Part shown: one piece after another, positions 25,128-59,624 of the stretch
Layout: each line of letters opens with the position of its first letter
Position numbering within the stretch: position 1 is the stretch's first letter
The notes under the pieces: model-generated
Databases searched by the model: none
Told to the model about the DNA's origin: nothing
What the model saw: the letters and a program-made list of their open reading frames with translations, nothing else
Assembly (NCBI GenBank): GCA_963752285.1
Contig: CAVVXN010000001.1
Span: 352,001-416,000, forward strand
Length of the DNA stretch: 64,000 nucleotides
Source of the DNA: an uncultured Planctomycetota bacterium
GTDB taxonomy: Bacteria; Planctomycetota; PLA2; JAEUHO01
Reading direction: 5' to 3'
Translations under genes and position numbers: made by a program

Positions 25128-26300
25128 ATGCGAACCCCGGCCCGACTCGCGCTGCTCGTGTCGCTGGCCGTGCTCCTCTCGCGACCGGCGCCGGCCGCGG
25201 AGGACATGACGCGCCTCGAGAAGCAGGCGGCGAAGGAGGCGGAGAAGATCGCCGCCACGTGGGTCGACCTCGCGAGGGACCTCGCGAAGCGGGGCATGAG
25301 GTCGGCCGCCGCCGACGCGCTGGGCCGCGCCGAAGCCCTCCTCCCGGAGGCGGAGGGGCTGAAGGACGTTCGCGCCGAGGTCGACGCGCTCGAGGGCGAC
25401 AAGGACCTCGACCCGGACGCCGAGAAGCTCGTCGCCAAGGCGAAGGCCGCCGCGGCGAAAGGCTGCGAGCGGATGTCGAAGGTCTTCGCGCGGGAGACCG
25501 AGGATCCGCGCTACACGCGCTACCTGATCGAAGCGTTCCTCCTCGAGCCCACGAAGCCGAGACAGGCGAAGGTCGCGGACCTCGCGAAGAAGGCGCCGCT
25601 CCTCCTGCAGGTCCCCGGGCACCCGATGGCGGCGTACGTGTCGTTTCCGAGCGCGTGGAAGCCGGGGAAGGAGTGGCCGGTCCTCGTCTCGGTCGAGGGC
25701 GCGGGCTCGAACTTCAAGGGGAACGCCGAGGAGTTCCGGAACGCGCGGGGCTCGCGGCCCTTCATCACCGTGTCGCCCCACGCCCTCTCGTGCACGAACG
25801 AGGTGAAGCTCGATCGCTACCCGGCCTACTCGAAGGAGCTGGTGGAGAAGTGGAACGGCCGCCGGATCGAGTTCGACGTGCCGGGTCTCCTCGGGATCCT
25901 CGACTTCCTCCACGAGGGATTCGGCGCGTCCGAGAAGGTCGCCATCACCGGCTTCTCGGGCGGCGGGTTCCTGTGCTACGCGATGGTCCTCGAGCACCCG
26001 GAGCGGATCCTCTGCGCGGCGCCGGCGTGCCCGAACTTCCAGCCCGGGCTCGCGGAGGGGGCGAAGACGCCCGACGACGGGGGGCCGCCCATCCACATCA
26101 TGACGGGCGAGAAGGACCCGAACCGCCTCCTCACCCACGGCACCACCCCGCCGGGGATCGAGGAGCAGACCGACTGGGCGGTGAAGGCCCTCGCGGACCA
26201 CGGGTTCACGAAGGTGACGCGCGTGATGCTGCCGGGGGTTGCCCACCAGGCCCTTCCCGCCCAAGTCTGGACCTTCCTCGACTCGGTCACCGGCGACTGA
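25128..26300 (+). CDS. Secreted alpha/beta-hydrolase-fold protein
   Basis: GAGGAG before ATG 25128; signal peptide; nucleophile elbow GFSGGG; GEKD and C-terminal VAH. Confidence 0.75.
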   Translation: MRTPARLALLVSLAVLLSRPAPAAEDMTRLEKQAAKEAEKIAATWVDLARDLAKRGMRSAAADALGRAEALLPEAEGLKDVRAEVDALEGDKDLDPDAEKLVAKAKAAAAKGCERMSKVFARETEDPRYTRYLIEAFLLEPTKPRQAKVADLAKKAPLLLQVPGHPMAAYVSFPSAWKPGKEWPVLVSVEGAGSNFKGNAEEFRNARGSRPFITVSPHALSCTNEVKLDRYPAYSKELVEKWNGRRIEFDVPGLLGILDFLHEGFGASEKVAITGFSGGGFLCYAMVLEHPERILCAAPACPNFQPGLAEGAKTPDDGGPPIHIMTGEKDPNRLLTHGTTPPGIEEQTDWAVKALADHGFTKVTRVMLPGVAHQALPAQVWTFLDSVTGD

Positions 26301-26395
26301 GAGCGTCGCATCCCGACCCTTCCTCCTCCTTGCGTACATTCGTACGCGGCGTCGTCGTCATGGCCGGCCTGCGAGGCTCTCAGTCGCCGGTGACC
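26285..26395. repeat. Palindromic element, copy A
   Basis: Perfect 20-bp outer stem (26285-26304 / 26376-26395) enclosing the 49-nt core 26317-26365 shared with copies B and C. Confidence 0.85.
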
Positions 26396-26413
26396 CCGCG
26401 TGCGGTGGGGGGC

Positions 26414-26665
26414 GGCGCGCTCGCTCGCCCTCGGCGGCGTGCGGAGCACGCCGCCGAGGGCGTCGCCTCGCGGGGGGGCGCGCTCGCTCGCCCTTGGCGG
26501 CGTGCGGAGCACGCCGCCGAGGGCGTCGCCTCGCGGGGTGGGGGCGCGCTCGCTCGCCCTTGGCGGCGTGCGGAGCACGCCGCCGGGGGCGTCGCCTCGC
26601 GGGGGGGGGCGCGCTCGCTTGGGCTTGGCGGCGTGCGACGCACGCCGCCGGGGGCGTCGCATTGC
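26414..26665. repeat. Tandem array of 4 hairpin units, ~63-66 bp each
   Basis: Unit GGCGCGCTCGCTCGCCCTYGGCGGCGTGC-GGA-GCACGCCGCCGRGGGCGTCGCCTCGCG; units start near 26414, 26477, 26543 and 26608; the last is degenerate. Confidence 0.88.
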
Positions 26666-26723
26666 GGGGGGGGTCGCATTGCGGGGGGGCGGCGGTTTGC
26701 GGGGGGATTGGCGGGACGGGGGG

Positions 26724-28397
26724 TCAGGCGAAGCGGCGGTGCGTGCCCTTCGTCTCGGCCGTGCGGCCCTCGGCCTCGCGCTCCGCGGCCAGGCGCTCGC
26801 GGTAGGTGGCGTAGTTGCCTTCCCAGAAGCGGGCCGTGCCGTCCTCGGAGAGGGCGAGGATGTGCGTCGCGATCCGGTCGAGGAAGAACCGGTCGTGGGA
26901 GACGACGACGGCCGAGCCGGGGAATAGGACGAGCGCGTCCTCGAGGACGCGCATCGTCGAGAGGTCGAGGTCGTTCGTCGGCTCGTCCACGAGGAGGAGG
27001 TTTCCCCCTCGGCGGAGCATCTTCGCGAGCTGCACGCGGTTCCTCTGCCCGCCCGACAGCGTGCCGACCTTCTGCTGCTGGTCGGCGCCCCGGAAGCCGA
27101 AGTGGGCGACGTACGCGCGGCTGTTCACCGCGCGCGTGCCGAGCCGGAGCTCGTCTTGGCCGTCCGAGATCTCGGCCCAAACGGACTTCCCGGCGTCGAG
27201 GTCCGCGCGGTCCTGGTCCACGGAGCACGTCTCGACCGTCGGACCGAGCACGACCCGGCCGGCGTCGGGCTCGAGTCGCGACGCGATCAGACGGAGCAGG
27301 GTCGTCTTCCCCGTCCCGTTCGGTCCGATCACGCCCAACACGCCACCGGGCGGGAGCTCGAACGAGAGGTTCTCGAGCACGGCGCGGTCCCCGAACCGCT
27401 TCGAGAGGCCCTCCACGCAGAGCACCTGGTCGCCGAGCTTCTCGCCGGGCGGGATCGTGATCGTGACCCCGTCGTCCTGCGTTCGCTGCTGCTGATCGTC
27501 CCAGAGTCGCTCGAATCCCTTGATTCGGGCCTTGCTCTTCGCCGTCCGCGCGCGCGGGCTCTGCCGGATCCACTCGAGCTCCCGCTCGAGCAGCTTCGCG
27601 CGCGCGGCGGACTGCCGTTCCTCGACCGCCTGGCGCGCCGCCTTCTGCTCGAGGTAGGCGGAGTAGTTGCCCTGGTACGGCGTGCCGCGCCCGCGCTCCA
27701 TCTCGAGCATCCACTGCGCGACGTTGTCGAGGAAGTACCGGTCGTGGGTGATCGCGACGACGGTTCCTTCGTACTCGGCGAGGTGGCGCTCGAGCCACTG
27801 CACGGCGTCCGCGTCGAGGTGGTTCGTGGGCTCGTCCAACAGGAGGACGTTCGGGTGTTCGAGCAGGATCCGGCAGAGCGCGACGCGACGGCGCTCGCCC
27901 CCCGAGAGCCTCGCGACGTCGGCGTCGGGCACAGCGAGCCCGAGGGCGTGGCTGGCCTGGTCGAGCCGGCGGTCGAGGTCCCAGGCGCCGCGCGCCTCGA
28001 TCTCGGTTTGCACCGTCTCGAGCTCCTCGAGCGCCCGCTGCATCTCGTCGGGGCCGAGGTCGGTCGCGAGCCGATCGTTCAGGCGGTCGAACCGGTCGAG
28101 CAGCGCGCGGACCTCGCCCACCGCCGCCTCGAGGTTGTCGCGCACCGTGCCGGGCGCGAGCGCGGGCTCCTGGGCGAGGTACCCGACGCGCACGCCGTCC
28201 GCGACGTACCGCGTGCCCTCGTGGTCGGCGTCGGCGCCGGCCATGATGCGGAGCAGCGTGCTCTTGCCCGAGCCGTTCGCGCCGATCACGCCGATGCGGG
28301 CGCCCTTCAAGAAGGCCAGGGTGATGCCCTCGAGGACGGTCCGGCCGTCGAAGACGCGACCGACGCGCTGGAGCTGGATGACGTAGTCCGAGTTCAT
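26724..28397 (-). CDS. ettA: ABC-F ATPase, energy-dependent translational throttle EttA
   Basis: ATG 28397; two ABC domains (GANGSGKST / GPNGTGKTT, LSGGE / LSGGQ, DEPTN twice); linker ELEWIRQSPRAR. Confidence 0.92.
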   Translation of the reverse strand: MNSDYVIQLQRVGRVFDGRTVLEGITLAFLKGARIGVIGANGSGKSTLLRIMAGADADHEGTRYVADGVRVGYLAQEPALAPGTVRDNLEAAVGEVRALLDRFDRLNDRLATDLGPDEMQRALEELETVQTEIEARGAWDLDRRLDQASHALGLAVPDADVARLSGGERRRVALCRILLEHPNVLLLDEPTNHLDADAVQWLERHLAEYEGTVVAITHDRYFLDNVAQWMLEMERGRGTPYQGNYSAYLEQKAARQAVEERQSAARAKLLERELEWIRQSPRARTAKSKARIKGFERLWDDQQQRTQDDGVTITIPPGEKLGDQVLCVEGLSKRFGDRAVLENLSFELPPGGVLGVIGPNGTGKTTLLRLIASRLEPDAGRVVLGPTVETCSVDQDRADLDAGKSVWAEISDGQDELRLGTRAVNSRAYVAHFGFRGADQQQKVGTLSGGQRNRVQLAKMLRRGGNLLLVDEPTNDLDLSTMRVLEDALVLFPGSAVVVSHDRFFLDRIATHILALSEDGTARFWEGNYATYRERLAAEREAEGRTAETKGTHRRFA

Positions 28398-28479
28398 CCG
28401 CCTGTTGTAATCGGCGGGAGGCGGGCGTGCCGGGGGGATCGGACCGGAGAGTCCGCGGGCGGATAGAATCGGGTGCCCC

Positions 28480-28686
28480 ATGGGCACCCCGAGCAAGCGC
28501 ACGATCCTCTCGCGTCTGGTGGACGTCCTCTGCGGGCTGTCCGCCTACGTCGGAGCCCGGTTCATCTGGGCGAACCAGGACGTGTTCTCGAACCTTCCGT
28601 ACGAGCTGCTCACCTTCGCGGCGATCTACCTGCTCCTCCAGGCGATCGTGCGGGGTCGGCGCCTGGCCCGCGAGGGGCGGAAGTAG
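28480..28686 (+). CDS. Small (68 aa) membrane protein with two hydrophobic segments
   Basis: Protein-like composition, two hydrophobic stretches, TAGAAT box upstream, closely followed by the next gene. Confidence 0.65.
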   Translation: MGTPSKRTILSRLVDVLCGLSAYVGARFIWANQDVFSNLPYELLTFAAIYLLLQAIVRGRRLAREGRK

Positions 28687-28691
28687 GCCGC

Positions 28692-29831
28692 GTGTCCCTC
28701 CTTCGCGCGCTCGCCATCGCCGCCCTCCTCTCGGCGCCCTTCGCCGCGGGGTCCGGGTGCGGCGGCTCCGCGGGCTCGAGCCCCGGCGTGTACGTCGTGT
28801 CCGCGAAGGACCTCGGCGCGCTCGAGACGAATCCCGAGATCCGCGGTCGGGACGGCGGCTACGGGGGCGTGTTCGACGGCCGCTCCGTCTGGATCTACGG
28901 GGACACCGTCCTCCGCGACCCCGCCGCGGACGGGCGCTCCTGGCGGCACAACTCGTGGTCGTACACGTACGACCTCGACAGCTCCGACGGTGTCACGGGG
29001 TTCGAGGAGCCGGTCGACGCCGCGGGCGCCCCGGTGGAGCTCTTCCCCCAGACCGATGACGAGCGCGCCTTCAACGACGTGCACTTCGTCGATCCCTGCA
29101 CGGTCGATCCGTGCGGCGCGCGGCTCGCCGTGTGGCCGGGCCCGATGGTCGTCGATCCCGGCCGGTCTCGCGCGCTCCTCTTCTACCACCTCGTGTACGC
29201 GGAGCCCGGCCCCTTCAACTTCACGTTCCTCGGCTGCTCCATCGCGACCTGGGACGACGCCGGCCAGGCGCCCGTCCGGCCCGTCGTCGCGCCGGGGACC
29301 GCGCACCCGACCCTCCTCTTCGCGAACGGGGAGCCCGACTTCGGGGCCGCGGCGCTTTGCGTGGGCGACACGCTCTACGCCTACGCCTGCCGCTCGGACG
29401 ACTGGGACAAGCCGTGCATCCTCGCTCGCGTACCCCTCGCGGACGCCCTCGACCGGAGCCGGTGGAGGTACTACGTCGGTGGGGGGCGCTGGTCGGACGA
29501 GCTGTCGCTCGCACGCCCCGTGATCGAGGCGTGCGACATCTTCTCCGTGGCCTGGAACCAGGCGCTGGGCTGCTATCTCGCCGTCTACAGCCAGACGCTC
29601 GACACGAAGACGATGATCCGGACCGCGCCCGCCCCCGAGGGCCCGTGGTCGGCGCCGGTCCTGGCCTTCTACACGATCCCGCCCACCGACGACGGCTGGA
29701 CGTACGACGCGCTCGCGCACCCCGAGCTCGAGCGCGACGGAGGCCGCGTGCAGATCGTGTCGTACTCCCGCGTGATCGGGTTCCTCGCCGCGGAGGTCCG
29801 CCTCGTGGAGGTCGTGCTCGCCCGCCGCTGA
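28692..29831 (+). CDS. Exported DUF4185-like beta-propeller protein, possible glycoside hydrolase
   Basis: GTG 28692; signal peptide with Cys; SVWIYGDT, LARVP, WRYY, SVAWN, APAPEGPWS, YDALAHP motifs. Confidence 0.7.
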   Translation: MSLLRALAIAALLSAPFAAGSGCGGSAGSSPGVYVVSAKDLGALETNPEIRGRDGGYGGVFDGRSVWIYGDTVLRDPAADGRSWRHNSWSYTYDLDSSDGVTGFEEPVDAAGAPVELFPQTDDERAFNDVHFVDPCTVDPCGARLAVWPGPMVVDPGRSRALLFYHLVYAEPGPFNFTFLGCSIATWDDAGQAPVRPVVAPGTAHPTLLFANGEPDFGAAALCVGDTLYAYACRSDDWDKPCILARVPLADALDRSRWRYYVGGGRWSDELSLARPVIEACDIFSVAWNQALGCYLAVYSQTLDTKTMIRTAPAPEGPWSAPVLAFYTIPPTDDGWTYDALAHPELERDGGRVQIVSYSRVIGFLAAEVRLVEVVLARR

Positions 29832-29867
29832 ACACCGGCCGACCCGCGGGCCGCGTCCCGCGCCGCG

Positions 29868-32800
29868 TCACGGGCCGTGGTGGGGGCGGATCTTCTCCAG
29901 CGCCGCGGCGGCGCGCTTCCGCACGTTTTCGTCCGGGTCCTTCTTGAGCGCCTTGAGCGCGTGCTCGGCGGACTTCGCGTCCGGCCCGATCAGCTCGAGC
30001 GCATAGGCCGCCGCGGACCGCGCGAACGCGCTGTCGTCCTTCAAGAGCCGGATGAGCGCGTGCACCGCGGGCTTCCCGATGCCCGCGAGCGCGCGCGAGT
30101 ACTCGTACATCTTCTCGTCCTGCTGCGCCGCGAGCCCGTCGCAGAGGTCCGGGACGAGCTTCGCCGCCACGGCGCCCATCCGGCCGATTGCGTCGAGCGC
30201 CGACGAACGGACCCGGTCCGCAGGGTCGCGCGTCATCCGCTGGAGCACATCGAGAGCGCCCTTCCCCACCGCGGCCATCGCGGCGATGCCCGCTTCGCGG
30301 ACGGCGTCGTCGGGGTCGTCCATGGCGGCCGTGAACGTCGCGCTGGCCGGCTCGGCGGCCGGGCCGAGCGACGCGAGGGTCTCGAGCGCCTCACGGCGGC
30401 GCGCCGCCCCCGGCAGGCTCTTGTCGTCCCCGAGGCGGGCGAGGGCCCGGACGGCCTCGGGCTCGTCCGCGGCGAGCCGCGCCAACGCCTCGAGCGACGC
30501 GCGACGGACGTCGGCGTCCGTGCTGTCCGAGATCTGGACGAGCGCGTCGATGCCGTCCGGTCCAGGCGCCCCGATCCTCCCGATCGCCCGGGCCGCGAGG
30601 GCCCGGACCCGCGCGTCCTTCGCTTGGCGACCGACCCGGATCACGTCGGGCGCCGCGTCGCGCGCCTCGGACCCGAGGCCGGCGATCACGCGGAGCGCGC
30701 CCGCCCACGCCGCCTCGCGACCGCTCCGAAGCGCGCCGACCACCGCGTCGAGCGCGGGCCGCCCCCCGGCGACGAGGCCCGCGACGGCACCGTCCACGAC
30801 GCGCGGGTCGGGGGCCTCGAGCGCGGGGACGAGCGCGGGGACCGCCTCGCCCGGCGCGAGGGACATCCCCGTCCAGGCCGCCTCCGCCGCCGCCCGGATC
30901 GTCGCGCTCTCGTCCGCGCGACAGGCCGAGATCGCCGCGAGCCCGCCCGGGGCGTCCTTTCCCAACGCGCCCAGCGCTCCGAGCGCCTCGGCGCGCTCGC
31001 GCGGGGCTCCGTGAAGCGCGCACTCGGAGACGAACGGCGCGTCCTCCATGGCGCCCGTGCCCAGGCGGACGACGATGCGGAGCGCCACCAGGCGCATCCG
31101 CGGCTCCGCGCTCTGGAGCGCGGTCCCCAGGATCTCGAGCACCGACGCCGGATCGCGTTTCGTCGTGGCGAGCCCCCGGGCGGCCTCGACCCGGACGCGC
31201 GGCGCGCGGTCCACGAGCGCCTTCTGGAGCGCGTCGAGGACCTCGTCGGAAGGTCGGGGGCGGTCCGCCAGGGCCGCGGCGGCCGTGGCGCGGACCGTTT
31301 CGTCGCTCTCGTCGAGCCCGCGGAGCAACGCACGCTCCACGTCGGGCGCGTCGGGGGCGACGTGCGAGAGGGCGGCCGCGGCGCCCACCCGCACCGGCGG
31401 CGCGGGATCGGCGAGGAGCGCGCGGAGGCGGTCGGCCGAGGTCGCGGCGTCCGTCCCGACGCTGGAGATCGCCTCGAGGGCGGCGGCGCGGAGCCGGACG
31501 TCCTCCGTGTCGAGCGTCCGGACGAGATCGTCGAGGGCCGGTCGCGCTCCCGCCTGGAGCCCCGCGAGCGCGCGGGCGGCCGCCAGGCGCACCGCGGGGG
31601 ACGCGTCGGCGAGCATTCCCGCCAGCCGCTTCACGTCCCGGGCGTCCGGCTCGAGGGCGGCGACCGCGCGCGCGAGGGCGGCGCGCACCTGCGGGTCCGG
31701 GTCGGACGCGAGACGCGCCCACTCGGCGCGCGCGGGGGCGAGACGGTAGAGCGCGACGGCGTCGAGGATCCGCGCCTTCTCGGCGGCCGGGCGGGAGGTG
31801 TCCTGGAGCGCCGTCACGAGGTCCGAGCGGTCGGCCGGCAGCGTCGGGAAGTGGGACGGCGTCTCGAGGAGGAGCACGCACATGGCCGTCGTGTACACGC
31901 GACCCGCGTCGGCGCTCCACGCGCTGTCCGTGTCCCACGAGCCTTTGTACGCGCACGCGTCGCCGTCGTGGCGCTGCGCGCCCACGACGGCCTGCTCGAG
32001 CGCGCGCCGCCACGCGGGCCAGCCGGGGTCGTCTCGCGCGGAGAGCGCGAGCGCGCCGTAGTGCCAGTAGTAGAGGTCCGTGTAGCCGCCGGGCGTGTCC
32101 CAGCGGGGCGGGAGAACGCGGAGCAGTCCCGCCGCCTTCTCGTTCGTGGCGGCGTCCCGACGCGGGTCGTCGCCCGGGATCTGGTCCCTCAGGAAGAGGC
32201 CGATCGCGGTACAGGTCTCCGTCTCGTCGCAGGGGAAGCGGTCGATCTCCTCCTGCAGGCGCGCGCTGAGGCCGCCGCGCTGGATGTACCCCGTCCGCCC
32301 GACCTCGTCGGTCATCTGGTCGATCCACGTTCGGATGCCGGTGAAGGCCTCCGCGGGGATCGGGAACGGCGGCGCGAGGTCGGCGGCCATCGCCGCGCGG
32401 TTCACGCGGCGGGCGGCGAGGAGCGCGAGGGCGAGGCACCCGGTCTCCGACGTGTCGTTGTCGCCGGGGCGGACGCCGTAGCGCCACGCGAGCCCCGGGT
32501 TCTGCGCCGCGAGCGCGAAGTCGATGGCACGGCCCGCGGCGCGCCGCCACCGCACGTCGCCCGTGGCGCCGTACGCGTCCACGAGCGCCTGCGTCGCGAA
32601 CGCGTGGCCGTAGAGGAAGTGCAGCGTCGTCCGGGGGCCGACGCAGCCGCCGGCGTCCTGGGCATCGACGAGCGCCGCGAGACCCCGGGCGATCACGTCC
32701 TCGTACGGGTCGCCGGCGCGCGGCGCGTACCCCGCGGTCGCGAACGCGAGGAGCGCGAGCCCGGAGACGCCGACGTCGTAGCCGGGGTAGCCGCCGCCCT

Positions 32801-33143: not shown

Positions 33144-33247
33144 CTCGCGGATTCTCTCGTTGGCCCGCGCGCGAGACAAGGCCGGTCCCCCGGTCCCCCG
33201 GTCGCTGGCCGGTATCCTCCTCGTGGGCGTTGGACCCGGGAGGCCCC

Positions 33248-33754: not shown

Positions 33755-33766
33755 GGGATCGCTTCG

Positions 33767-34192: not shown

Positions 34193-34201
34193 GGGGCGCC
34201 C

Positions 34202-35272: not shown

Positions 35273-35394
35273 CGGGCGGAGGATCGTACCCGCGGTGCGC
35301 GGTGATGGACACCGGCGGCGAGAGCGTCGGTCCCGGGGCGTTCGGGGTCGGTAGACTCGCGCGCGTTCGGGCGGCCCCGGAGGAGGGCGCGAGG

Positions 35395-37229: not shown

Positions 37230-37353
37230 GGGCCGAGTCCGCGCCCTCCCCCGCCTCCCGCGCCCGCCGACCACCTGGAGAGTGCGATTGTGGAGAACGG
37301 GGCTATGCTCCGGTCACGGGGCGTCCCCCGGCGGCCCCCCGGTGGAGTACGGC

Positions 37354-39583: not shown

Positions 39584-39584
39584 A

Positions 39585-48368: not shown

Positions 48369-48378
48369 CCGACCGAGG

Positions 48379-49785: not shown

Positions 49786-49799
49786 GGAGGATCCGGGTC

Positions 49800-51122: not shown

Positions 51123-51132
51123 CGTCCGCCTC

Positions 51133-52944: not shown

Positions 52945-53180
52945 TTCGTCCCTCCGCGGTACGCCCCGGTCGGTTCCGGGGCGTTCGTTGGTACCCGCGG
53001 GAGGGAGATGGGTTTCGACCGGACCTCGCCCGCGGCCCCCAGATCCTCCGTGTGCCGTCCGAGCCGCCGGGCCCGGTCGCGTCGCCCTTGCCCGGGCGCC
53101 ACTCTGCCACGCGACGAGGGACCCGGTCCGGGAACTGGGCCCAAGGTCCCGCCTCGCCGGCGCGGTCCCGCCGGCGGGCA

Positions 53181-54491
53181 TCAGCCCACCACGTGGACCG
53201 GCGTCACGACGGGCTGGGGCTCGGGGAAGACGGGCGCGGGATCTACGCCCAGGTGCTCGCCGAGCAGCGAGCGGTACACGTCGCGGAAGTCCACGGCGTA
53301 GTCCAGGTACTCGAGGTCGAGGTCCGCGTCCGTGAGCTCGGGCCCGTACGCGCCGCCGCGGACGGCGCCGCCGGCGAGCAGGAACACGTTGCCGTGGCCG
53401 TGGTCGGTGCCGCCGGACGCGTTGATGTACGTGCGCCGGCCGAACTCCGAGATCACCACGATCGCCGTACGGTCCCACACGCCCATGGCGCGGAGGTCCG
53501 TGGCCAGGCCGCCGATGCCGCCGTCGAGCCACGAGAAGAGGTTCGCCTGCGTCCCCGTCGTCGTGCCCTGGTTGCCGTGCGTGTCGAAGCCGCCGTATCC
53601 CGTGTAGAAGATCCGCGTCTCGAACCCGAAGTTCACGAGCGTCGCGATGTCGCGGAGGTTCCGCTGGATCGTGCGGAGCGTGCCGGTCCCGCCCGTGTAG
53701 TCGGCCGTGCTCCCGAGCGCCGCGTACGCGTCCACGGCCGCGGCGACCTGGTCCGCGAGCGCGTAGCCCTGCGCCAGCGCGTCCGCCGCGTCGCCCGCCG
53801 GGCCCGTCCGCGGGTACCGGTCGAGCATGCTCCGGAGCATCTCGACGCGGCGGACGTGGTCGTTTCGGTACGCGCCGTCCGTCTTGTAGGCGAAGCTCGA
53901 CAGACGGTCCACGAGGAACGAGTCGGTGTGGCCGCCGACGAAGTCGCGGCGCCGGCCCACGCCCACGCTGGCCGCGCCCATGGGCGTCGGCGCGTACAGG
54001 TCGGCGAAGCGAGCCACCCACCCGCTCGGCGAGAGCCCGAGCGGCGCGAAGGAGCCGCGCACGCCGTACGAGTAGATGTCCTCGCTCGTGAAGTGGGAGA
54101 GGTTCGCGTTGGGGTAGCCCACCTTCTCCACGAAGGCCGCCTCGCCCTGGTCCCAGAGCGCGGCGAGGTTCGAGAAGGACGGGTGGAGGCGGTACGTCGT
54201 GGTGGGCGCCGGCCCGCCGCCGAGCGCCAGCGCGTCCGTCTCGGCGATCGCGAGCGTCTCGCGGCGGTCGTAGTACCGCGTGAGCGAGGTCGGGATCACC
54301 ATGTTGAGCCCGTCGTTCCCCCCGAGCAGGTTCACGACGATCAGGATCGGGTCGGCGCTGGGCGCGCCCGTCGCTTCGGGCATCCACCGCGCTCCGAGGG
54401 GCCCGAGGGCCGCCAGGCCGAGGCCGGCGCCGGCGAAGGCGAGGACGTCGCGACGGCTGAGATCGCCGCGCTTTCCGTGCGAGGTGGTCAT
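53181..54491 (-). CDS. DUF1501 family protein, Tat-exported (copy 1)
   Basis: SRRDVL Tat motif; GGNDGLN, SHF, GGFDTH, SEFGR, GTDHG. Confidence 0.92.
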   Translation of the reverse strand: MTTSHGKRGDLSRRDVLAFAGAGLGLAALGPLGARWMPEATGAPSADPILIVVNLLGGNDGLNMVIPTSLTRYYDRRETLAIAETDALALGGGPAPTTTYRLHPSFSNLAALWDQGEAAFVEKVGYPNANLSHFTSEDIYSYGVRGSFAPLGLSPSGWVARFADLYAPTPMGAASVGVGRRRDFVGGHTDSFLVDRLSSFAYKTDGAYRNDHVRRVEMLRSMLDRYPRTGPAGDAADALAQGYALADQVAAAVDAYAALGSTADYTGGTGTLRTIQRNLRDIATLVNFGFETRIFYTGYGGFDTHGNQGTTTGTQANLFSWLDGGIGGLATDLRAMGVWDRTAIVVISEFGRRTYINASGGTDHGHGNVFLLAGGAVRGGAYGPELTDADLDLEYLDYAVDFRDVYRSLLGEHLGVDPAPVFPEPQPVVTPVHVVG

Positions 54492-54524
54492 CTGGGAGCT
54501 TCCCTTCTTCGGTCGAACCCGCGT

Positions 54525-56105
54525 TCAGCGGAGCATGTAGGTGGGGTGCTGGGCGAGCATGTAGAGGAGACCCCGGACCCGCTCGTCCACGTGCTGGGGG
54601 TTCGTGGCGTCGAACGGGTCGTCCGTGTCGGTGCCGTCGGACTCGCGGTGGGTGTCGAGGTACCGGACGAGGTCGGCCCGGTCGGCGGAGGTCAACGTGA
54701 CCTGGAGGACCCGCGCGAGGCGGTCCACGACCTCGCCGGCCGTGGGCGTGCCCGGCGGCAGGAGCGTCGCCACGTCGTAGCCCGCGGCGGCCTGGTCCTG
54801 GCGGTCCACGATCACGTCCCGCACGAAGTTGGCGCGGTTGACCATGCCCTGGGCCGAGAGCCACAGCGCGCCGTTCGGCCAGCCGTTGACGTTCGGGGGC
54901 TGGGTCGGCACCTGGGCCATCCCCTCGAGCTCCGACCGGAAAGCACTCGCCTGCCATGCGCCGGTCGTGTGGTCCACGAGCGGGAGGTTCGTCGCACGGT
55001 TCCACCCCATGACGAACTCGACGGGGCTCTTCACGCGGCCCTGGCGGGCGCGCGGCGAGGAGAAGGCCTCCGAGAGGAACATCGCGCGGAGGGCCGGCGC
55101 GAGCTCGTAGCCGTTCGTCCGGAGGATCTGGGCGAGCTGGGACACGACGTCGTCGGGCGGATTCTCGTAGCAGAACCACGACAGCAAGGACCGCGCGAAC
55201 CATTCCGCGGCGGGGCGCTGGGCAAAGGTGAGATCGACCATGGCCTGGTAGTCGTCGGTCAGGTTCTGCCCCGGGATCGTCACGCCGAACACGGTCTTGT
55301 CGCCCGGGTCGTGGCGATTCGGGTCGAAGACGACGCCGCTCAGGCCCGTGTCCGGGTCGAGCGTGACCTGCTTGTAGCCCGTGAAGGCGCGTGCGGCCTG
55401 GACGATGTCGTCCTGCGTGTAGCCGTTGTCCACGCCGAGGCAGAACAGCTCGAGGAACTCGCGGCCGTAGTTCTCGTTGGGCGCGCGACTCGTGCTCGAG
55501 ATGCCGTCCAGCCAGCGGAGCATCGCCCAGTCCCGCGACACGTCCAGGACCAGCTGCTTCAGGTTGCCCGCACCCTCGGCGCGCAGGAGGTCCAGGTGGG
55601 TCTTCATCCACCAGAGGTTGCCGCCCTCCAGGACGTCGGACGACGTGGCGAAGTGGTCGTGCCAGAAGAAGGCGAGGACCTCCTGGAAGGGGTTCTCGTC
55701 GTGCGCCATCAGGTAGAGGGCCCACTGCGAGAGGTCCTGGGTGCTCGGGAACTGGCCCTCCTCGCCGGGCGGGTCCTCCGCGTGGACGAGGAGCTGGCCG
55801 GCGTCCTGCTCCCACGCCGTGCTCCCGGGCGCGGGGAGCTGGAGCATGGCGTCCACGTACGCCGGGAGCCCCATCGACTGGAGTCGCGACCAGGACGAGT
55901 CGGTGTACGCCCACTCCGCTACGACGAGGAAGTGCTCGAGCTCGGCCTCCGTCCACGAGGACTTCGGCGCCATCGAGCCGTACGCGAGCGGCGGCTCCGC
56001 CGCGACGGACGACCCGCCGCCTCCGCCGCACGCCGCGAGCGGCGCGCTCGAGATCAGCAGGAGCGCGAGGATCCCTCCCCTCGACGTCGGTCGCAGTCGC
56101 GGCAT
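54525..56105 (-). CDS. DUF1800 family lipoprotein (copy 1)
   Basis: GGAGG before ATG 56105; LAAC-GGGG; FWHDHFATS, PNENYGREFLELF, PPNVNGW. Confidence 0.9.
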   Translation of the reverse strand: MPRLRPTSRGGILALLLISSAPLAACGGGGGSSVAAEPPLAYGSMAPKSSWTEAELEHFLVVAEWAYTDSSWSRLQSMGLPAYVDAMLQLPAPGSTAWEQDAGQLLVHAEDPPGEEGQFPSTQDLSQWALYLMAHDENPFQEVLAFFWHDHFATSSDVLEGGNLWWMKTHLDLLRAEGAGNLKQLVLDVSRDWAMLRWLDGISSTSRAPNENYGREFLELFCLGVDNGYTQDDIVQAARAFTGYKQVTLDPDTGLSGVVFDPNRHDPGDKTVFGVTIPGQNLTDDYQAMVDLTFAQRPAAEWFARSLLSWFCYENPPDDVVSQLAQILRTNGYELAPALRAMFLSEAFSSPRARQGRVKSPVEFVMGWNRATNLPLVDHTTGAWQASAFRSELEGMAQVPTQPPNVNGWPNGALWLSAQGMVNRANFVRDVIVDRQDQAAAGYDVATLLPPGTPTAGEVVDRLARVLQVTLTSADRADLVRYLDTHRESDGTDTDDPFDATNPQHVDERVRGLLYMLAQHPTYMLR

Positions 56106-56420
56106 GGCGGCCTCCCTCGGCCCCCCTCCGGGAGCCGCGCCTCTGGCCTCCACCCGTCCCGAATCGAGTCCCTCCCGCGGGGGGATTCGAGCCCGCATCC
56201 GGGGGAACGACCAGCGACCACCTCGCGCGTCTGAACACGTTGGCGATCCGTGGGACGCGTGCGCGGCGCAGAACGCGGCGCGGACGGACCGCGCGACGCC
56301 TGTTTGCGCGCGGTGCCGCGCGACGCCCGTTCGCGACGTGCGGACGCGCGGGCCGGTTCGGCCGCGCCGAGGGACACGAACCCGTCCGTCCCGCCGTCCG
56401 GGGACGGCGAGGCGGGTCCG

Positions 56421-57608
56421 TCAGACCACGCGCTCGACCAGCGCGGCGAGCCCGAGCCCGCCGCTGATGCAGAGCGTCGCGACGCCGAGGCGGTCGCCCC
56501 GCTCCTCCATCGCGTGGAGGAGCGTGACGAGGATCCGGCATCCGGTCGCGCCGATGGGGTGGCCGAGGGCGATCGCGCCGCCCTTCACGTTCAGGCGCTC
56601 CTCGTCGATCCCGAGCTCTCGGTTGCACGCCAGCACCTGCGCGGCGAACGCCTCGTTGAGCTCCCAGAGGTCCACGTCCTCCTTCGCGACGCCCGTCTGC
56701 TCGAGCAGCGCCCGCACGGCCGGCACCGGGCCGAGGCCCATCACCTGGGGATCGACCCCGGCCTCGGTGAACGCGCGCAGCCGCGCCATCGGCCTCACAC
56801 CGAGGCGCGCGACCGCGTCGCGGCTCAGGACGACCACCGCCGCGGCGCCGTCCGTGATGCCGCTCGAGTTGCCCGCATGGACGGTCCCGTTCTCGCGGAA
56901 GACCGGGGGCAGCTTGGCCAGGGACGCCATCGTGATGCCGTCGCGCGCGTGCTCGTCCTGGTCGAAGAGGGTCTCGTTTCCCTTGCGGTCGCGGATCGGG
57001 ATCGGCGCCTTCTCGGCGTCGAAGCCGCCGCGCTTCCGCGCGGCCTCGCACCGCTGCTGGCTTCGCGCGGCGTACGCGTCCTGCTCTTCGCGCGGGATCT
57101 GGTAGCGATCGACCAGGTTCTCGGCGGTCGCGCCCATCACCTGCTCGGCGAGCGGGCAGAAGAACCCGTCCTTGTACATGCCGTCCACGATCGCGGCGTC
57201 GCCGAGCCGGTACCCCCACCGCGCGCGCGGCAGGAGGTAGGGCGTGTTCGACATGCTCTCCATGCCGCCGGCGAGGACGACCTCGGCCTGCCCCAGCCGG
57301 ATCGCGTCGGCGCCGAGGAGGACCGACTTGAGGCCGCTCCCGCACGCCATGTTGACGCTGAACGCCGGCCGTTCCACGGGCACCCCGGCGCGGACCGAGA
57401 CCTGGCGGGCCGTCCCGGGTCCCTGTCCGCCCTGCCGGCCGTGACCGAATATGGTCTGGTCCACGTCGGCCGGGGCGATGCCCGCTCGCTCGAGCGCGGC
57501 CTTGGCGGCGTGGATGCCGAGGTCGGGCGCCGAGAGATGGGAGAGGGAGCCGCCGTAGCGGCCGATGGGCGTCCGGACGGCGCCCGCCAGGAATACGTCC
57601 TCGATCAT
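56421..57608 (-). CDS. Acetyl-CoA C-acyltransferase (thiolase)
   Basis: RTPIG, NMACGSG, NEAFA, GHPIGATG, LCISGG. Confidence 0.95.
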   Translation of the reverse strand: MIEDVFLAGAVRTPIGRYGGSLSHLSAPDLGIHAAKAALERAGIAPADVDQTIFGHGRQGGQGPGTARQVSVRAGVPVERPAFSVNMACGSGLKSVLLGADAIRLGQAEVVLAGGMESMSNTPYLLPRARWGYRLGDAAIVDGMYKDGFFCPLAEQVMGATAENLVDRYQIPREEQDAYAARSQQRCEAARKRGGFDAEKAPIPIRDRKGNETLFDQDEHARDGITMASLAKLPPVFRENGTVHAGNSSGITDGAAAVVVLSRDAVARLGVRPMARLRAFTEAGVDPQVMGLGPVPAVRALLEQTGVAKEDVDLWELNEAFAAQVLACNRELGIDEERLNVKGGAIALGHPIGATGCRILVTLLHAMEERGDRLGVATLCISGGLGLAALVERVV

Positions 57609-57734
57609 CCGCGCGATCTCCACGGCCTCGCCGGGGCGATGCTACCGGTTCCCGTGTGGGAGACCCCCCCCGTCCGGGGAGCGCTTGGCGTCCGCGGCCG
57701 CTCCGGTACCTTTCCTCCTCTCAGAGGAGGCGCG

Positions 57735-58949
57735 ATGGCCGCCAGGAAGTCCACCGGGGGCAAGAAGGCGTCCGGCGCCAAGAAGAAGCCCGCCGCCCAG
57801 CCCGCGGCGCCGAAGGCGGCCGCGAAGAAGGCGACGCGGAAGAAGGCGCCGGCGGCCGCGCCGGCGAAGCGGAAGGCCGCCCCGCGCGCGAAGAAGCCCG
57901 CCCCGGAGGCGACGGCGCCCGCCGAGAAGCGGCTCGTCGAGGAGGTCGCCGCCGCCGCGCCGGACGAGCCGGTCGCGGCGCGCGACGACGCGGCGGCGCC
58001 GGCCAAGGGCGCCGAGGCGGCCGAGGGCGCCGAGGGCGCCGGTACGGTCCAGGAGGTCGCCGCGCCGCCCCGTCGCGCGCGACGCGTGCCTCCGATGCCG
58101 CCCCGGCGGGCCGACGGGACCATCACGGTCGCGCTCTCCCCGGACGCGGACGACGCGTTCATGTTCTACGCGCTCGCTGCCGGCAAGGTGGACACGCAGG
58201 ACCGTCGCTACGAGCTCGTGCGCGAGGAGATCCAGGTCCTGAACGAGCGCGCGCGGGAGGGCGTCCACGACGTCACCGCGATCTCCTTCGGCGCGTTCCC
58301 CCACCTCGAGGACCGGTATCTCCTCCTCACCTGCGGCGCGTCGTTCGGGGACGGTCGCGGGCCCGTGCTCGTCGCGAAGACCCCGATCCGCACGAACGAG
58401 GTGAACGGGCTGACCGTCGCGGTGCCGGGTCTCCTGACGACCGCGGCCCTCGCCCTGCGCCTCTGGTTGCCGCACGCCAACCTGAACCTCGTCGAGGTCC
58501 CGTTCGACGACGTGGTGGACGCCGTGCGCTCGGGGCGGACCCGCGCGGGCGTGCTGATCCACGAGCGGCAGCTCACGTGGCGCGAGGACAACCTCGTGCG
58601 CATCGTCGACTTCGCCCAGTGGTGGGGCGAGAAGACGGAGGGCCTGCCGCTGCCGCTCGGCGCGAACGCGATCCGGCGCGACATCCCCGAGGAGGAGCGC
58701 ACCGAGATCGCGCTCGACATCAAGCGCTCGATCGCCTACGGCCTCGGCCACCGCGAGGAGGCACTGGACCACGCGATGCACTACGCGAAGGGCATCGACA
58801 AGAAGCTCGTGGACGAGTACGTCGGGATGTACGTGAACGAGCTCGCGCTCGACTACGCGGAGCGCGGCCGCCAGGCCGTCCGCCACTTCTTCGAAGAGGC
58901 GAAGCGGTTTCGACTCGTTCCTCCCGACCTCGAACCCGACTTCGCATAG
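57735..58949 (+). CDS. mqnD: MqnD-family futalosine-pathway protein with a Lys/Ala-rich N-terminal extension
   Basis: GAGGAGG before ATG 57735; SPDADDAFMFYAL, GASFGDGRGP, PGLLTTA, LIHE, LPLPLG, MYVN. Confidence 0.82.
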   Translation: MAARKSTGGKKASGAKKKPAAQPAAPKAAAKKATRKKAPAAAPAKRKAAPRAKKPAPEATAPAEKRLVEEVAAAAPDEPVAARDDAAAPAKGAEAAEGAEGAGTVQEVAAPPRRARRVPPMPPRRADGTITVALSPDADDAFMFYALAAGKVDTQDRRYELVREEIQVLNERAREGVHDVTAISFGAFPHLEDRYLLLTCGASFGDGRGPVLVAKTPIRTNEVNGLTVAVPGLLTTAALALRLWLPHANLNLVEVPFDDVVDAVRSGRTRAGVLIHERQLTWREDNLVRIVDFAQWWGEKTEGLPLPLGANAIRRDIPEEERTEIALDIKRSIAYGLGHREEALDHAMHYAKGIDKKLVDEYVGMYVNELALDYAERGRQAVRHFFEEAKRFRLVPPDLEPDFA

Positions 58950-59054
58950 CCCGGCGCGCTGAGAGCCACGTTCGCGGCCCTTCCTCCTCCTTGCGTGCCT
59001 TCGCACGCGGCGTCGTCGTCATGGCCACTCCTTGTGGCTCTCAGCGCGCCGGGC
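58949..59054. repeat. Palindromic element, copy B
   Basis: Perfect 21-bp outer stem (58949-58969 / 59034-59054); 49-nt core at 58978-59026. Confidence 0.88.
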
Positions 59055-59260
59055 CCGGTGGGGACGCGTGGGCGTTCGGGCTCGCGGGCCCGCCTTCGGC
59101 GGGGCCGCATCGCGCCGACCGCGATACGTACGGGGGGCCGCATCGCGCGGGCCGTCGTTGGCTGGCGGATGCGGGATTCGGGACGTACGACGTACGCCCT
59201 ACTCCCGACCGGCGGCGGAGGGCGCATGCGGCGAAGCCGCGAGCCCGTCCCGGTACCGCC

Positions 59261-59515
59261 GCGATGCGGCGCCGCCGCAGGCGGCCCCGCGAGCCCCGCC
59301 GCGCCCCGCCGCGCCGCGCCCGCGCGATGCGGCGCCGCCGCAGGCGGCCCCGCGAGCCCCGCCGCGCCGCGCCCCCGCCACGCCCGCGCGATGCGGCGCC
59401 GCCGCAGGCGGCCCCGCGAGCCCCGCCGCGCCCCGCCCCCGCCACGCCCGCGCGATGCGGCGCCGCCGCAGGCGGCCCCGCGAGCCCCGCCGCGCCCCGC
59501 CCCCGCCACGCCCGC
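59261..59515. repeat. Tandem array of 4 units, 63-64 bp each, each with a TGCGGC-GCC-GCCGCA hairpin
   Basis: GCGATGCGGCGCCGCCGCAGGCGGCCCCGCGAGCCCCGCCGCGCC starts at 59261, 59324, 59388 and 59452. Confidence 0.9.
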
Positions 59516-59520
59516 AACCG

Positions 59521-59624
59521 CCCGGCGCGCGGAGAGGTCAAAGGAGTGGCCATGACGACGACGCCGCGTGCGAATGCACGCAAGGAGGAGGAAGGGCCGC
59601 GAACTGACCTCTCCGCGCGCCGGG
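59521..59624. repeat. Palindromic element, copy C (inverted relative to A and B)
   Basis: Perfect 20-bp outer stem (59521-59540 / 59605-59624); the enclosed 64 nt is the reverse complement of the copy B interior at 63/64 positions. Confidence 0.88.

Follow-up and report, generated by a model that had tools for sequence, protein, structure and literature searches.

What are the three copies of a structured element of about 105 nt that a first-pass annotation had recognised in a window of 64,000 nt (C1:352001–416000) from the 4.64-Mb genome of an uncultured planctomycete (G000), and how did they come to lie where they do? The core pattern was found without a mismatch at window positions 26317–26365 (+), 58978–59026 (+), and 59548–59596 (−) and in none of 100 dinucleotide-preserving shuffles (0 matches expected by chance, 3 seen), so the copies are real. 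They are members of an apparently mobile family of hairpin-forming DNA repeats of about 110 bases, which directly follow the stop codons of ordinary genes. The features of the three copies (A, B, and C) and of the arrays beside them are collected in Table 1.

Table 1. Features of the three element copies and of the adjoining arrays (window positions).
Feature	Position	Strand	Basis
Copy A ("head")	26285–26397	+	Covariance model, 89.3 bits
Tandem array after copy A, 65-nt unit × 4.2	26407–26677	+	TRF, genome C1:378407–378677
Copy B	58946–59059	+	Covariance model, 101.7 bits
Copy B outer stem P1, 5′ arm	58949–58970	+	Partner 59033–59054; minimum-free-energy and centroid structures
Copy B helix P2 (GGCC)	58976–58979	+	Partner 59023–59026; predicted fold
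Copy B triplet-repeat helix, 5′ strand CTTCCTCCTCCTT	58980–58992	+	Family covariation
Copy B inner hairpin P3 (GCGTGC-CTTC-GCACGC)	58993–59008	+	Sequence, predicted fold, and covariation
Copy B triplet-repeat helix, 3′ strand GGCGTCGTCGTCAT	59009–59022	+	Family covariation
Copy B outer stem P1, 3′ arm	59033–59054	+	Predicted fold
Copy B short 3′ region, single hairpin unit (59080–59113)	59060–59198	+	
Tail module, far end of copy C array	59199–59262	−	Direct reading of sequences
Tandem array after copy C, 64-nt unit × 4.0	59260–59515	−	TRF
Copy C, inverted relative to B	59515–59628	−	Covariance model, 111.2 bits

Read directly, the inner hairpin covaries as had been reported (GCGTAC/GTACGC in A, GCGTGC/GCACGC in B and C). 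The outer stems of 20–22 bp, described as perfectly paired, are so in B and C, and in A each arm has one unpaired position. Copies B and C differ at five positions in the 5′ arm and five in the 3′ arm, with all five pairs still Watson–Crick, which bears out the compensation claimed for them. The outer stem of copy A extends over the final codons of the preceding gene, whose TGA stop (26298–26300) is inside the 5′ arm, and that of copy B begins at the G of the TAG stop (58947–58949) of a menaquinone-biosynthesis (VitK2_biosynth) gene. No co-oriented gene end adjoins copy C, the 5′ side of which points toward the start of a DUF1573 ORF (59678–60610, +).

The original picture was incomplete in that the genome holds 26 copies and that an array or array remnant lies 3′ of each window copy. 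Every 65-nt unit after copy A consists of a GC-rich hairpin and a G run, and the unit after copy C of the hairpin GCTCGCGGGGCCGCC-TGCG-GCGGCGCCGCATCGC and a G-rich spacer. The 3′ region of copy B meets the tail of the copy C array near 59199–59201 (CTA), and the same tail module ends an array at C3:114947, as both sequences show when read directly. With a single exception, the copies in this genome each stand at the head of a tandem repeat array, whose units usually combine a hairpin with a G-rich stretch. Where the GCTYGCGG hairpin unit forms a multi-unit array (18 cases), a same-strand element precedes it every time.

The 26 copies, the window's three included, were obtained with nhmmer, and a pattern search allowing up to 8 substitutions gave 25. 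Covariance model R1 detected the element, at 1–106 matches per carrier genome, in 24 of the 29 genomes from the planctomycete family to which G000 belongs, representing 14 of 16 genera; 119 genomes sampled from elsewhere in the phylum gave none. In a scan of public genomes, 12 of 80 pattern loci were true elements, 11 of them in MAGs with titles beginning "Planctomycet" and one in a MAG titled Alphaproteobacteria, which has four copies on four contigs. When 40 relatives of the latter were searched as well, 6 of the 41 genomes of this second lineage carried 1–4 copies, the carriers being small genomes (1.3–1.7 Mb). The unit measures 105–117 nt, copies within a genome are more alike than copies from other genomes, and the family has no match in Rfam.

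The claim that this is a selected folded element is well supported. Folded as RNA, either strand of each window copy reaches −69 to −79 kcal/mol (z −9.3 to −10.5), and none of 200 shuffles folds as well. The core is rod-shaped, leading from the outer stem P1 through helix P2 and a triplet-repeat helix to hairpin P3. In an alignment of 114 distinct element sequences, 90.5% of cells are paired (74.0% in shuffles) and 33 of 38 pairs have changes on both sides. Covariation scores 0.381, whereas shuffles give 0.123 (0 of 500 reaching the observed value) and the score is at most 0.096 when the pairing partners are slid. These figures are inflated to some degree, since copies within a genome share ancestry and the alignment was made to fit the model. 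P2 covaries within the family (e.g., GGGCCC, AGGCCG/CGGCCT, ACCCCC/GGGGGT), and the outer stems vary from copy to copy with pairing retained. Such variable yet paired stems, unlike the fixed terminal repeat that a transposase binds, speak against a mobile repeat.

What looks like an internal loop is itself a helix, in which every third position is a C–G pair flipping to G–C, between invariant tandem mismatches (T·C/C·T on the gene-sense strand, G·A/A·G on the other). Its pairs are, by sequence, CG 51/GC 50/other 10, CG 85/GC 26/other 2, and CG 111, and, by genome majority, CG 8/GC 12/other 4, CG 9/GC 13/other 2, and CG in 24 of 24; the mismatch columns are invariant in at least 108 of the 114 sequences. 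Two results support the tandem G·A register proposed earlier: the C–G pairs between the mismatches covary with G–C, and for the purine-rich strand ViennaRNA returns this very helix under RNA parameters, though not under DNA parameters.

It seems highly improbable that this purine-rich strand is the functional product, whether as a small antisense RNA carrying GGA-rich motifs or as a short ORF (candidate start AAGGAG, five bases, ATG, reading MTTT...). The strand does fold best and form the tandem G·A helix, and most copies have a Shine–Dalgarno-like GGAGG or GGAAG followed by ATG (101 of 114 sequences have T at column 130). However, 7 of the 26 copies in G000 have AGG instead of ATG, no stop codon is conserved, and the P3 loops are 4, 5, 6, and 8 nt long, differences that are not multiples of three, so the frame across P3 is lost while the sequence after P3 is kept.

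Stop codons coincide with the element or lie no more than about 35 nt away, its orientation is mostly that of the upstream gene, and its description as a repeat dispersed at gene 3′ ends is supported. At 21 of 24 independent loci in G000, a long same-strand ORF ends −30 to +14 nt from the element start, the stops being TAG (8), TAA (3), and TGA (10, seven of them within the element's own CTGAG). Among stops outside the element arm, 11 of 14 are TAG or TAA, compared with 26.6% genome-wide (567/2129; p = 7.5e-5). Across the family a gene end is present at 71 of 111 loci (TAG 44, TGA 22, TAA 5), against 25 of 111 in a mirrored control, and where only one side has a gene end, it is the 5′ side at 38 loci and the 3′ side at 10. 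In the second lineage, an upstream ORF ends 15–60 nt before the element at 10 of 12 loci examined, with seven TAG stops, and these genes presumably include those for EF-G, L33, and SSB. Judging from C-termini, we take the preceding genes to be often highly expressed housekeeping genes (rpsI, EF-G, L33, SSB, tRNA synthetase, porins).

This tight placement and co-orientation, the housekeeping character of the upstream genes, and the very stable folds (z about −9 to −10.5) all favour a host cis-acting structured RNA of 3′ untranslated regions, selected for a role as a terminator-like signal, mRNA 3′-end stabiliser, RNase III site, or protein-binding site, with duplication or mobility secondary. 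So does the conservation of the core in two distant lineages, which, at 1–4 copies in genomes of 1.3–1.7 Mb without Y1, fits host function at least as well as selfish spread. We nevertheless consider such an RNA rather unlikely. No T run follows P3 or P1; on the gene-sense strand the conserved helix consists of weak pyrimidine mismatches and is absent from the minimum-free-energy fold; the opposite strand folds better by 5–6 kcal/mol; and G·U pairs are not in excess over A·C pairs (128 vs. 149, with 68 of the 128 at a single pair). The likeness among copies of one genome also argues against it, as do the insertion sites.

Comparison of orthologous loci, as had been suggested, showed that related genomes differ in which sites are occupied. 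At the 3′ end of rpsI, two genomes of 25, G000 and G019, have the element, which the congeneric G001 lacks; relatives have ordinary terminator-like hairpins there, ending in GGCGTCGTCGT, a resemblance to the element's 3′ strand that counts in favour of a host RNA. For 24 flank proteins of G001 with a homologue in G000, one had an element within 1.5 kb, in opposite orientation. Since insertion sites are not common to related genomes, the element is or was mobile, which fits the earlier idea of mobilisation in trans. In G001 it has a fixed left and a fixed right arm; of 27 copies there, 7 are flanked immediately by TAG at each end and about 11 others at a single end, and internally deleted, core-less derivatives retain the same ends. 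A TA duplication was confined to some copies of this one genome; G000 showed no target duplication and no TA on the 3′ side of the hairpin, and beyond the array the first TA belongs to a TAG at only about 10 of 24 loci, no clear enrichment. These 3′-side TA findings in G000 count against the mobile-repeat reading.

The first-pass annotation had linked the element to HUH (RAYT) transposases. In that case the element, non-autonomous and either REPIN/REP-like or of IS200/IS605 type, would travel as folded single-stranded DNA, and a Y1 HUH enzyme (RAYT or TnpA) would join it in a strand-specific manner to the 3′ side of a short target (TAG). Agreeing with this are the left boundary, which adjoins the 3′ side of TAG/TAA in several genera with or without a left arm, the orientation fixed relative to the TAG-carrying strand, the absence of target duplication in G000, a conserved folded core whose non-canonical pairs would suit a site recognised in single-stranded form, and the TAG that also follows the right end in G001, as if two cleavage sites were alike. 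Even so, we judge it quite improbable, and the proposed link was not supported. The sole Y1 gene (PF01797) of G000 is flanked by inverted copies not of the element but of a different 22-nt repeat, whose 17 copies in that genome come no closer than 5.9 kb to an element. Nor do Y1 genes track the element across the 29 family genomes: PF01797 was not found in the carriers G001 (44 element copies, 80% complete), G008, G005, and G013 and is present in G011 and G020, both without the element; among five second-lineage carriers searched, none had it. The unit is also not a REP of 20–40 nt, and the base preceding TAG is not fixed as G.

The statement that the window holds no transposase stands for the three families tested (PF01797, PF13358, and PF05598), whose matches in G000, taken as a set, are at C1:103535, C2:581834, and C2:31032, all outside the window. 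IS630-type DDE_3 genes occur in only 7 of 29 genomes, the two loci examined had no matching inverted ends, and a DUF772 remnant led nowhere. Among these leads (Y1, DDE_3, and DUF772), neither an autonomous parent element nor a transposase with matching ends was found, which weighs against a mobile repeat.

We regard a mobile hairpin repeat akin to MITEs and REPs, non-coding and non-autonomous, as the probable explanation, with moderate confidence. Such a repeat would be moved in trans by a separate enzyme and would land on TA dinucleotides; since TA is rare outside stops at 73% G+C, surviving insertions would be those behind TAG/TAA or at the very end of a gene, the latter where the element's own CTGAG supplies TGA. 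With a symmetric target (TA or CTAG), orientation should be random, and the observed bias, which counts against this reading, calls for selection or a strand-specific mechanism in addition. Gene-oriented copies would be co-transcribed and give the mRNA a 3′-terminal hairpin of about −70 kcal/mol, which the host may tolerate or may use to block exonucleases or as a site for RNase III; this would account for the orientation bias. The invariant triplet helix could be a protein-recognition module for the mobilising enzyme or a host factor, and replication slippage may have expanded the 3′ flank in G000 into the hairpin and G-rich arrays.

Several known systems resemble this repeat in part. Palindrome-associated elements derived from IS200/IS605 transpose as single strands by "peel and paste", insert strand-specifically 3′ of a short target, have neither terminal inverted repeats nor duplications, and use two subterminal hairpins with non-canonical pairs as recognition sites. 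The insertion 3′ of a short target and the folded hairpin with non-canonical pairs are similar here, whereas our hairpin is single and far larger, and TnpA was not found in several carrier genomes. REP units, in the accounts drawn on here (PMC3116915, PMC3733652), are 20–40 nt long, bear a GTAG or CGTC tag, and flank a RAYT gene. Like REPs and REPINs as described there, the element is a palindromic intergenic repeat in which compensatory changes retain pairing, occurs in inverted doublets (copies B and C) and clusters, and is of a kind thought to be mobilised in trans; it differs in its 105–117-nt unit and in that the Y1 gene has its own repeat and does not co-occur with it.

Among TA-ended bacterial MITEs, the portions of Delihas's review used here (PMC2229807) list Correia/NEMIS of Neisseria (about 107 and 155 bp), ERIC/IRU (127 bp), and RUP of S. 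pneumoniae (107 bp), for which IS630-Spn1 is the proposed mover. According to the same portions, transcripts of such repeats form stem-loops that are long and stable, in many cases no mobilising enzyme is known, and RNase III processing has been proposed for NEMIS (PMC2229807). The element shares with these repeats a size of about 100–200 bp, a non-coding nature, gene adjacency, and TA at the termini or target. It departs from them in a TA duplication limited to some copies of G001, the lack of an IS with matching ends among the leads examined, and its strongly biased orientation relative to the upstream gene. MITEs, as portrayed in that source, have fixed terminal repeats and a freer interior, whereas here the stems vary and the interior, a triplet-repeat helix with invariant tandem mismatches, is fixed. 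The element is probably a familiar kind of selfish repeat, with an unusual, deeply conserved helix of three-base repeats as its core.

The core that the first-pass annotation had picked out matched three times in the window and in none of 100 shuffled sequences, and the matches mark copies A, B and C of a hairpin-forming repeat found after stop codons. Direct reading also bore out the relation seen between B and C, whose outer arms differ at five positions each with all five pairs still complementary. The window spans C1:352001–416000 of a genome of 4.64 Mb in 5 contigs (72–73% G+C), in which 25 copies of the core were found at up to 8 substitutions, and a profile search raised this to 26, the additional one being diverged. 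The unit is 105–117 nt long, and every copy in the genome forms a long hairpin, with energies of −55.8 to −86.6 kcal/mol. Folded as RNA, A, B and C gave −69 to −79 kcal/mol on either strand (z −9.3 to −10.5; equalled by 0 of 200 shuffles), and with DNA parameters, again on either strand, −39 to −43 kcal/mol (z −7.1 to −9.3). Changes in the loop length of the inner hairpin (P3) break the reading frame through the element, and we find it scarcely credible that it yields a peptide or an antisense RNA. In one place three elements stand in direct tandem at a period of 183 nt, with an identical spacer after each; tandem elements also occur in the congeneric relative (G001) and in two other genomes (G009 and G013), with periods of about 164–243 nt.

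Positions of the element copies, arrays and related loci (window coordinates unless a contig is named)
Feature	Position	Strand	Remarks
Copy A	26285–26397	+	core match 26317–26365
Copy B	58946–59059	+	core match 58978–59026; one array unit only
Copy C	59515–59628	−	core match 59548–59596
Array of copy A	26407–26677		different 65-nt unit × 4.2
Array of copy C	59260–59515		64-nt unit × 4.0
Junction of B and C	near 59199–59201		copies lie tail to tail
Y1 (PF01797) gene	C1:103535–103858		the only one in this genome
Y1 locus (L001)	C1:102035–105358		outside the window
Triple tandem (L051)	C5:1771533–1772011		elements in direct tandem
Tandem in G001	G001 C7:187532–188106
Porin-like loci (L040, L041)	C3:155540 and C3:157858		paralogous genes ending ..FQWQLAL*, each followed by an element

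For the consensus structure, a hand-refined covariance model (R2) was used to realign 118 matches from 24 genomes, 114 of them distinct. The element consists of a long outer stem (P1), which varies from copy to copy, a short helix (P2), a central stretch and P3. In the 114 distinct sequences, standard pairs filled 90.5% of the cells, compared with 74.0% in shuffles, and changes on both sides were present at 33 of the 38 pairs. The covariation score was 0.381, a value that 0 of 500 shuffles reached and that compares with 0.123 in shuffles, and sliding the partners by 1–3 columns gave at most 0.096; these statistics come from an alignment fitted to the model, in which the copies within a genome share descent. 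The tally of wobble pairs was 128 G·U or U·G, 68 of them at one pair, against 149 A·C or C·A. P2 covaries, appearing as GGCC, GGGCCC, AGGCCG/CGGCCT and ACCCCC/GGGGGT.

The central stretch resembles a 13 × 14 internal loop, with C-T-T-C-S-T-C-S-T-C-C-T on the 5′ strand and G-K-C-G-T-C-S-T-C-S-T-C-A-T on the 3′ strand; S positions that face each other covary. Column pair 45–125 is CG in 51 sequences, GC in 50 and other in 10 (by genome majority, CG in 8, GC in 12 and unpaired in 4), and pair 48–122 is CG in 85, GC in 26 and other in 2 (CG in 9 genomes, GC in 13 and unpaired in 2); pair 51–119 is CG in 111 and pair 42–129 is TA in 112. The columns between the S pairs are invariant in at least 108 of the 114 sequences and oppose each other as T·C and C·T on the gene-sense strand. 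On the opposite strand they read as tandem G·A/A·G mismatches closed by C-G pairs, precisely the register proposed from the window. RNA parameters predict this triplet-repeat helix on the purine-rich strand, which folds 5–6 kcal/mol better than the pyrimidine-rich strand, in whose minimum-free-energy fold the helix is absent. Arm-to-arm repair of a DNA palindrome could by itself preserve the complementarity of the stems, but it would erase the mismatches, and their invariance argues for selection on them. A putative role for the conserved helix is to be read by a protein.

The position of the element was counted at 24 independent loci of the genome, the two inner copies of the triple tandem being set aside. 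At 21 of them, a long same-strand ORF has its stop between −30 and +14 nt from the element start; of the remainder, one is doubtful and two, copy C and the diverged copy, have no such ORF. The genes upstream are mutually unrelated. Pfam recognized a menaquinone-biosynthesis domain before B and, weakly, a hydrolase before A, and from their C-termini we take others to be rpsI, acyl-CoA dehydrogenases, glutamate dehydrogenase, a class II tRNA synthetase, GspF, porins and a multihaem cytochrome. The stop codon is TAG at 8 of the 21 loci, TAA at 3 and TGA at 10, with 7 of the latter lying within the conserved CTGAG of the element, as in copy A; at least 7 genes in this genome have their stop codon provided by the element. 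Among the 14 stops outside the CTGAG arm, 11 are TAG or TAA, compared with 26.6% genome-wide (544 TAG and 23 TAA in 2129 confident ORFs; p = 7.5e-5).

Across the family, a same-strand gene end was located from −120 to +25 nt of the 5′ end of the element at 71 of 111 loci, against 25 of 111 in the mirrored count, with offsets clustering at about 0, +14 and −30 to −35. The stops at these ends were TAG (44), TGA (22) and TAA (5). Where a gene ends on one side only, it is the 5′ side at 38 loci and the 3′ side at 10. The orientation bias is real. As to the replication strand, most of the 26 copies lie where GC skew is under 0.01, and the strand of the element is the G-rich one in 16 of them. The element might survive only at TA-containing stops or at the extreme ends of genes, where its own CTGAG would then supply the stop, and sense-oriented copies are probably co-transcribed, giving a very stable 3′ hairpin.

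Some gene ends deserve separate mention. At one of the two porin-like loci the stop is 21 nt upstream of the element, and at the other the 5′ arm of the element itself makes up the final three codons and the TGA, which would fit a short deletion that joined gene to element and left the C-terminus unchanged. The idea that an outer stem is an inverted copy of the last codons of the gene found no support at the gene upstream of A, whose orthologues end in unrelated tails of differing length, so that VTGD* may be either native or derived from the element. At the 3′ ends of rpsI in relatives (L143–L146, L149 and L150), terminator-like hairpins end in GGGGCGTCGTCGT(T/G)T or GGGCGTCTTCGTTTCCACACGAC, and these tails resemble the 3′ strand of the element (GGCGTCGTCGTCAT) and the right arm of its form in G001; a terminator tail motif may be common to this lineage.

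Orthologous sites, a comparison already suggested in the first-pass annotation, proved to be both filled and empty among relatives. Of the 29 family genomes, 25 yielded the S9 gene (rpsI), which is followed by the element in two of different genera, the present genome and G019, and not in the congeneric G001. In G001, 33 proteins flank 28 elements; 24 of these have a homologue in our genome, and only one of the 24 has an element within 1.5 kb there, in the opposite orientation. The spacers have diverged too far for empty-site junctions to be aligned exactly. In four DNA runs, represented by short contigs only, contigs of 582 and 178 nt span the gene-to-element junction at B, and no joint skips the element; this bears on neither excision nor expression.

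Copies within a genome are more alike than those of different genomes. The G001 form is longer, with a fixed left arm of 33 nt and a right arm of about 80 nt ending ..CAGGACAC, and its ends share only GTGT../..ACAC. By our own count, 7 of 27 G001 copies have TAG immediately beyond both ends and about 11 further ones have it beyond a single end, with single-base TAG variants in most others; in our genome, TA is found on the left side only, at 11 of 21 loci, and the base before TAG is a, c or g, with G not fixed. Site turnover, the ends of the G001 form and the counts of gene ends and orientation together indicate that the element is mobile, or once was, and that a TA-containing stop codon forms its left boundary. 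We think it probable that it belongs to the non-autonomous mobile hairpin repeats of the MITE or REP-like kind, presumably mobilized in trans, its TA-stop survival, protein-read helix and co-transcribed 3′ hairpin being part of that reading. Location, fold, covariation, spread and turnover of sites are direct findings here; a TA target, movement in trans, a protein reader and a role as RNA are inferred.

Other G001 copies (L161, L162, L164 and L165) keep both arms and the flanking TAG and have no hairpin core, the palindrome having likely suffered a deletion between its arms. The orphan left ends of G001 were followed as a path to an autonomous copy and abandoned, as the six loci are internally deleted or interrupted copies and not carriers of a transposase.

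About 380 genomes were sampled for the distribution of the element. BLAST with the core found it in 14 of the 28 other family genomes and gave no hit in 11 sister-family genomes or 21 other genomes of the phylum. With a covariance model built from 46 sequences (R1), it was detected in 24 of the 29 family genomes and 14 of the 16 genera, at 1 to 106 matches apiece for these genomes; elsewhere in the phylum, none of 119 sampled genomes had a match. Public genomes were also scanned with a loose pattern, which is not a census, and the model was applied to 80 loci (L174–L253) of at least 117 stretches; among these 80, 12 were true elements and 68 chance matches, mostly inside genes. Eleven of the 12 come from records whose titles read Planctomycetota, Planctomycetia or Planctomycetales, and the twelfth from one that bears the title of an Alphaproteobacteria MAG, with 56–59% G+C. 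In this last genome (G156; 1.6 Mb) there are 4 copies, each on its own contig, and among it and 40 relatives, 6 of the 41 genomes have 1–4 copies. In this second lineage, an upstream ORF ends 15–60 nt before the element at 10 of the 12 loci examined, 7 of the stops being TAG, and no two upstream proteins are homologous; from their sequences, we take them to include EF-G, L33 and SSB.

A core of about 45 nt is nearly unchanged throughout a planctomycete family and recurs in a lineage titled Alphaproteobacteria. This conservation across lineages, together with small genomes that hold few copies, would suit an element that is primarily a host 3′-UTR RNA signal, the main rival explanation and one to be taken seriously, though we judge it unlikely given the lack of orthologous sites and the weak folding of the core on the sense strand. 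The suggestion that the family is undescribed held against Rfam, which gave no match in the window at the gathering score, noise only for 58900–59700 at E up to 10 (best 17.2 bits, cut-off 50), and tRNA as the only match at 11 second-lineage loci. A literature search covering sources other than subscription journals found no description of this family. Among described repeats, Bru-RS1/2 of Brucella, of about 103–105 bp, would be a candidate relative.

If the element is a mobile repeat, an enzyme should move it, and the first-pass annotation had looked to a RAYT gene flanked by its copies. The single Y1 gene of our genome is an ORF of 364 aa between inverted copies of TCGACTCCCGACCCAGATTTTCG, a different repeat of 22–23 nt that forms a separate family of 17 copies, and the nearest element is 5,903 nt away. 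Some TCGACTCCCGACCCAGATTTTCG copies are in tandem, and the locus has the look of a tyrosine transposase, either RAYT or TIR-associated, accompanied by repeats of its own. A Y1 or RAYT transposase would account for the left TAG/TAA and the orientation bias, which agree with the strand-specific insertion 3′ of a short target, free of duplication and of terminal inverted repeats, known for the IS200/IS605 type. The distribution of PF01797, however, does not fit a resident Y1 TnpA acting in trans: it occurs in 17 of the 29 family genomes without tracking the element, was not found in G001 (44 copies), G008 (43), G005 (19) and G013 (8) or in any of the 5 second-lineage carrier genomes searched, and is present in G011 and G020, both without copies. 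Many of the genomes are incomplete MAGs, so these absences are weak evidence; even so, we hold movement by such an enzyme to be very improbable.

An IS630-type parent was rejected, as PF13358 (DDE_3) is present in 7 of the 29 genomes and the loci L171 and L167 have no element-like inverted ends, and so was an IS1182/IS5-type parent (PF05598 in 2 of 5 genomes, the hit in our genome being a degraded remnant). A contig of G014 (C742, L291) has an IS with a DUF772 transposase ORF of 504 aa and inverted ends of 21 nt, each finishing in CTAG; these are unrelated in sequence to the ends of the element, and this IS was also discarded as a parent. No link of the element to any known transposase emerged. 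The first-pass annotation was sound in its observation and, in its interpretation, as to the fold, the gene-end repeat and the G-A register, while the tie to HUH/RAYT enzymes did not stand. A bolder and rather doubtful proposal is that the triplet helix is the recognition module of a new strand-specific insertion system, which would place hairpins directly 3′ of TAG/TAA, always oriented the same way, by an enzyme neither Y1 HUH nor IS630-type and would operate in two or more distant lineages; insertion itself would generate the outer stems, one arm being a copy of the end of the target gene, and the stems would not descend from a master copy. If true, this would be a class of mobile element that targets stop codons.

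In our genome the element heads a composite, and a same-strand tandem array of 190–780 bp follows all copies save the diverged one. The usual array unit is a hairpin GCTYGCGG..CCGCRTCGC with a G-rich spacer. All 18 multi-unit arrays of this type are preceded by the element, and the 19 unit-like matches without it are all single. Units are near-identical inside an array and differ between arrays, as expected for growth in place by slippage. The first TA beyond the array is TAG at about 10 of 24 loci, and a shared end motif was not seen there. The units, of 46–65 nt, have a GC-rich hairpin, a TTYG-type loop and a G-run spacer, with the G-rich strand always that of the upstream gene. From one array to another the stem shows covariation (GGGCCCGCC/GGCGGGGCC, GGGGCCGCC/GGCGGCGCC, GGCTTCGGCC/GGCCTTGCC) with a G·G mismatch retained, and the spacers could form G-quadruplexes. 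Elements and their arrays occupy many intergenic regions and are likely to break assemblies, and the long spurious ORFs through the G-rich arrays are likely to mislead gene callers. Mechanical ORF lists (window 56250–58949 and the array loci) include very long frames that cross elements or arrays or reach far upstream of genes; in an ORF of 899 aa, the menaquinone domain matches residues 625–885 only, and callers may over-extend genes.

Small hairpin repeats of bacteria have long been known, and how most of them move and why they prefer gene ends is unsettled. Two described kinds come closest to the element, the REP/REPIN elements (PMC3733652; PMC3116915) and the TA-ended MITEs. It has the marks of neither an intrinsic (Rho-independent) terminator, there being no T run after P3 or P1 in A, B or C, nor an integron attC site, as RYYYAAC ... 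GTTRRRY was not seen by direct reading at the ends of these copies and the upstream genes are housekeeping ones. REP units are palindromes of 20–40 nt with GTAG or CGTC at one end (PMC3733652), whereas the element is of 105–117 nt and has no fixed G before TAG. TA-ended MITEs include Correia/NEMIS, RUP and ERIC (PMC2229807). Such MITEs and REP/REPIN have in common with the element their size, hairpin fold, position at gene ends and mobilization in trans or by an unassigned enzyme.

Like a MITE, the element is non-coding, shorter than 200 bp and folded end to end into a long stem-loop, but it does not have fixed terminal inverted repeats shared with a parent IS, as its stems are variable and the DDE_3 loci have no matching ends. 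The TAG at the right end in G001 is compatible with either an IS200/IS605-type or a MITE reading. The helix of C-G pairs and tandem mismatches, supported by covariation, offers an unusually clean handle on hairpin repeats. Its reader might be a transposase or a host protein that binds RNA or DNA, and finding it would explain both the spread of the element and its position at stop codons. Unlike Correia, RUP and ERIC, and unlike REP/REPIN, the element has variable ends around an invariant interior, a tandem-mismatch triplet helix as its core and a strongly biased orientation, and in our genome it heads minisatellite arrays.
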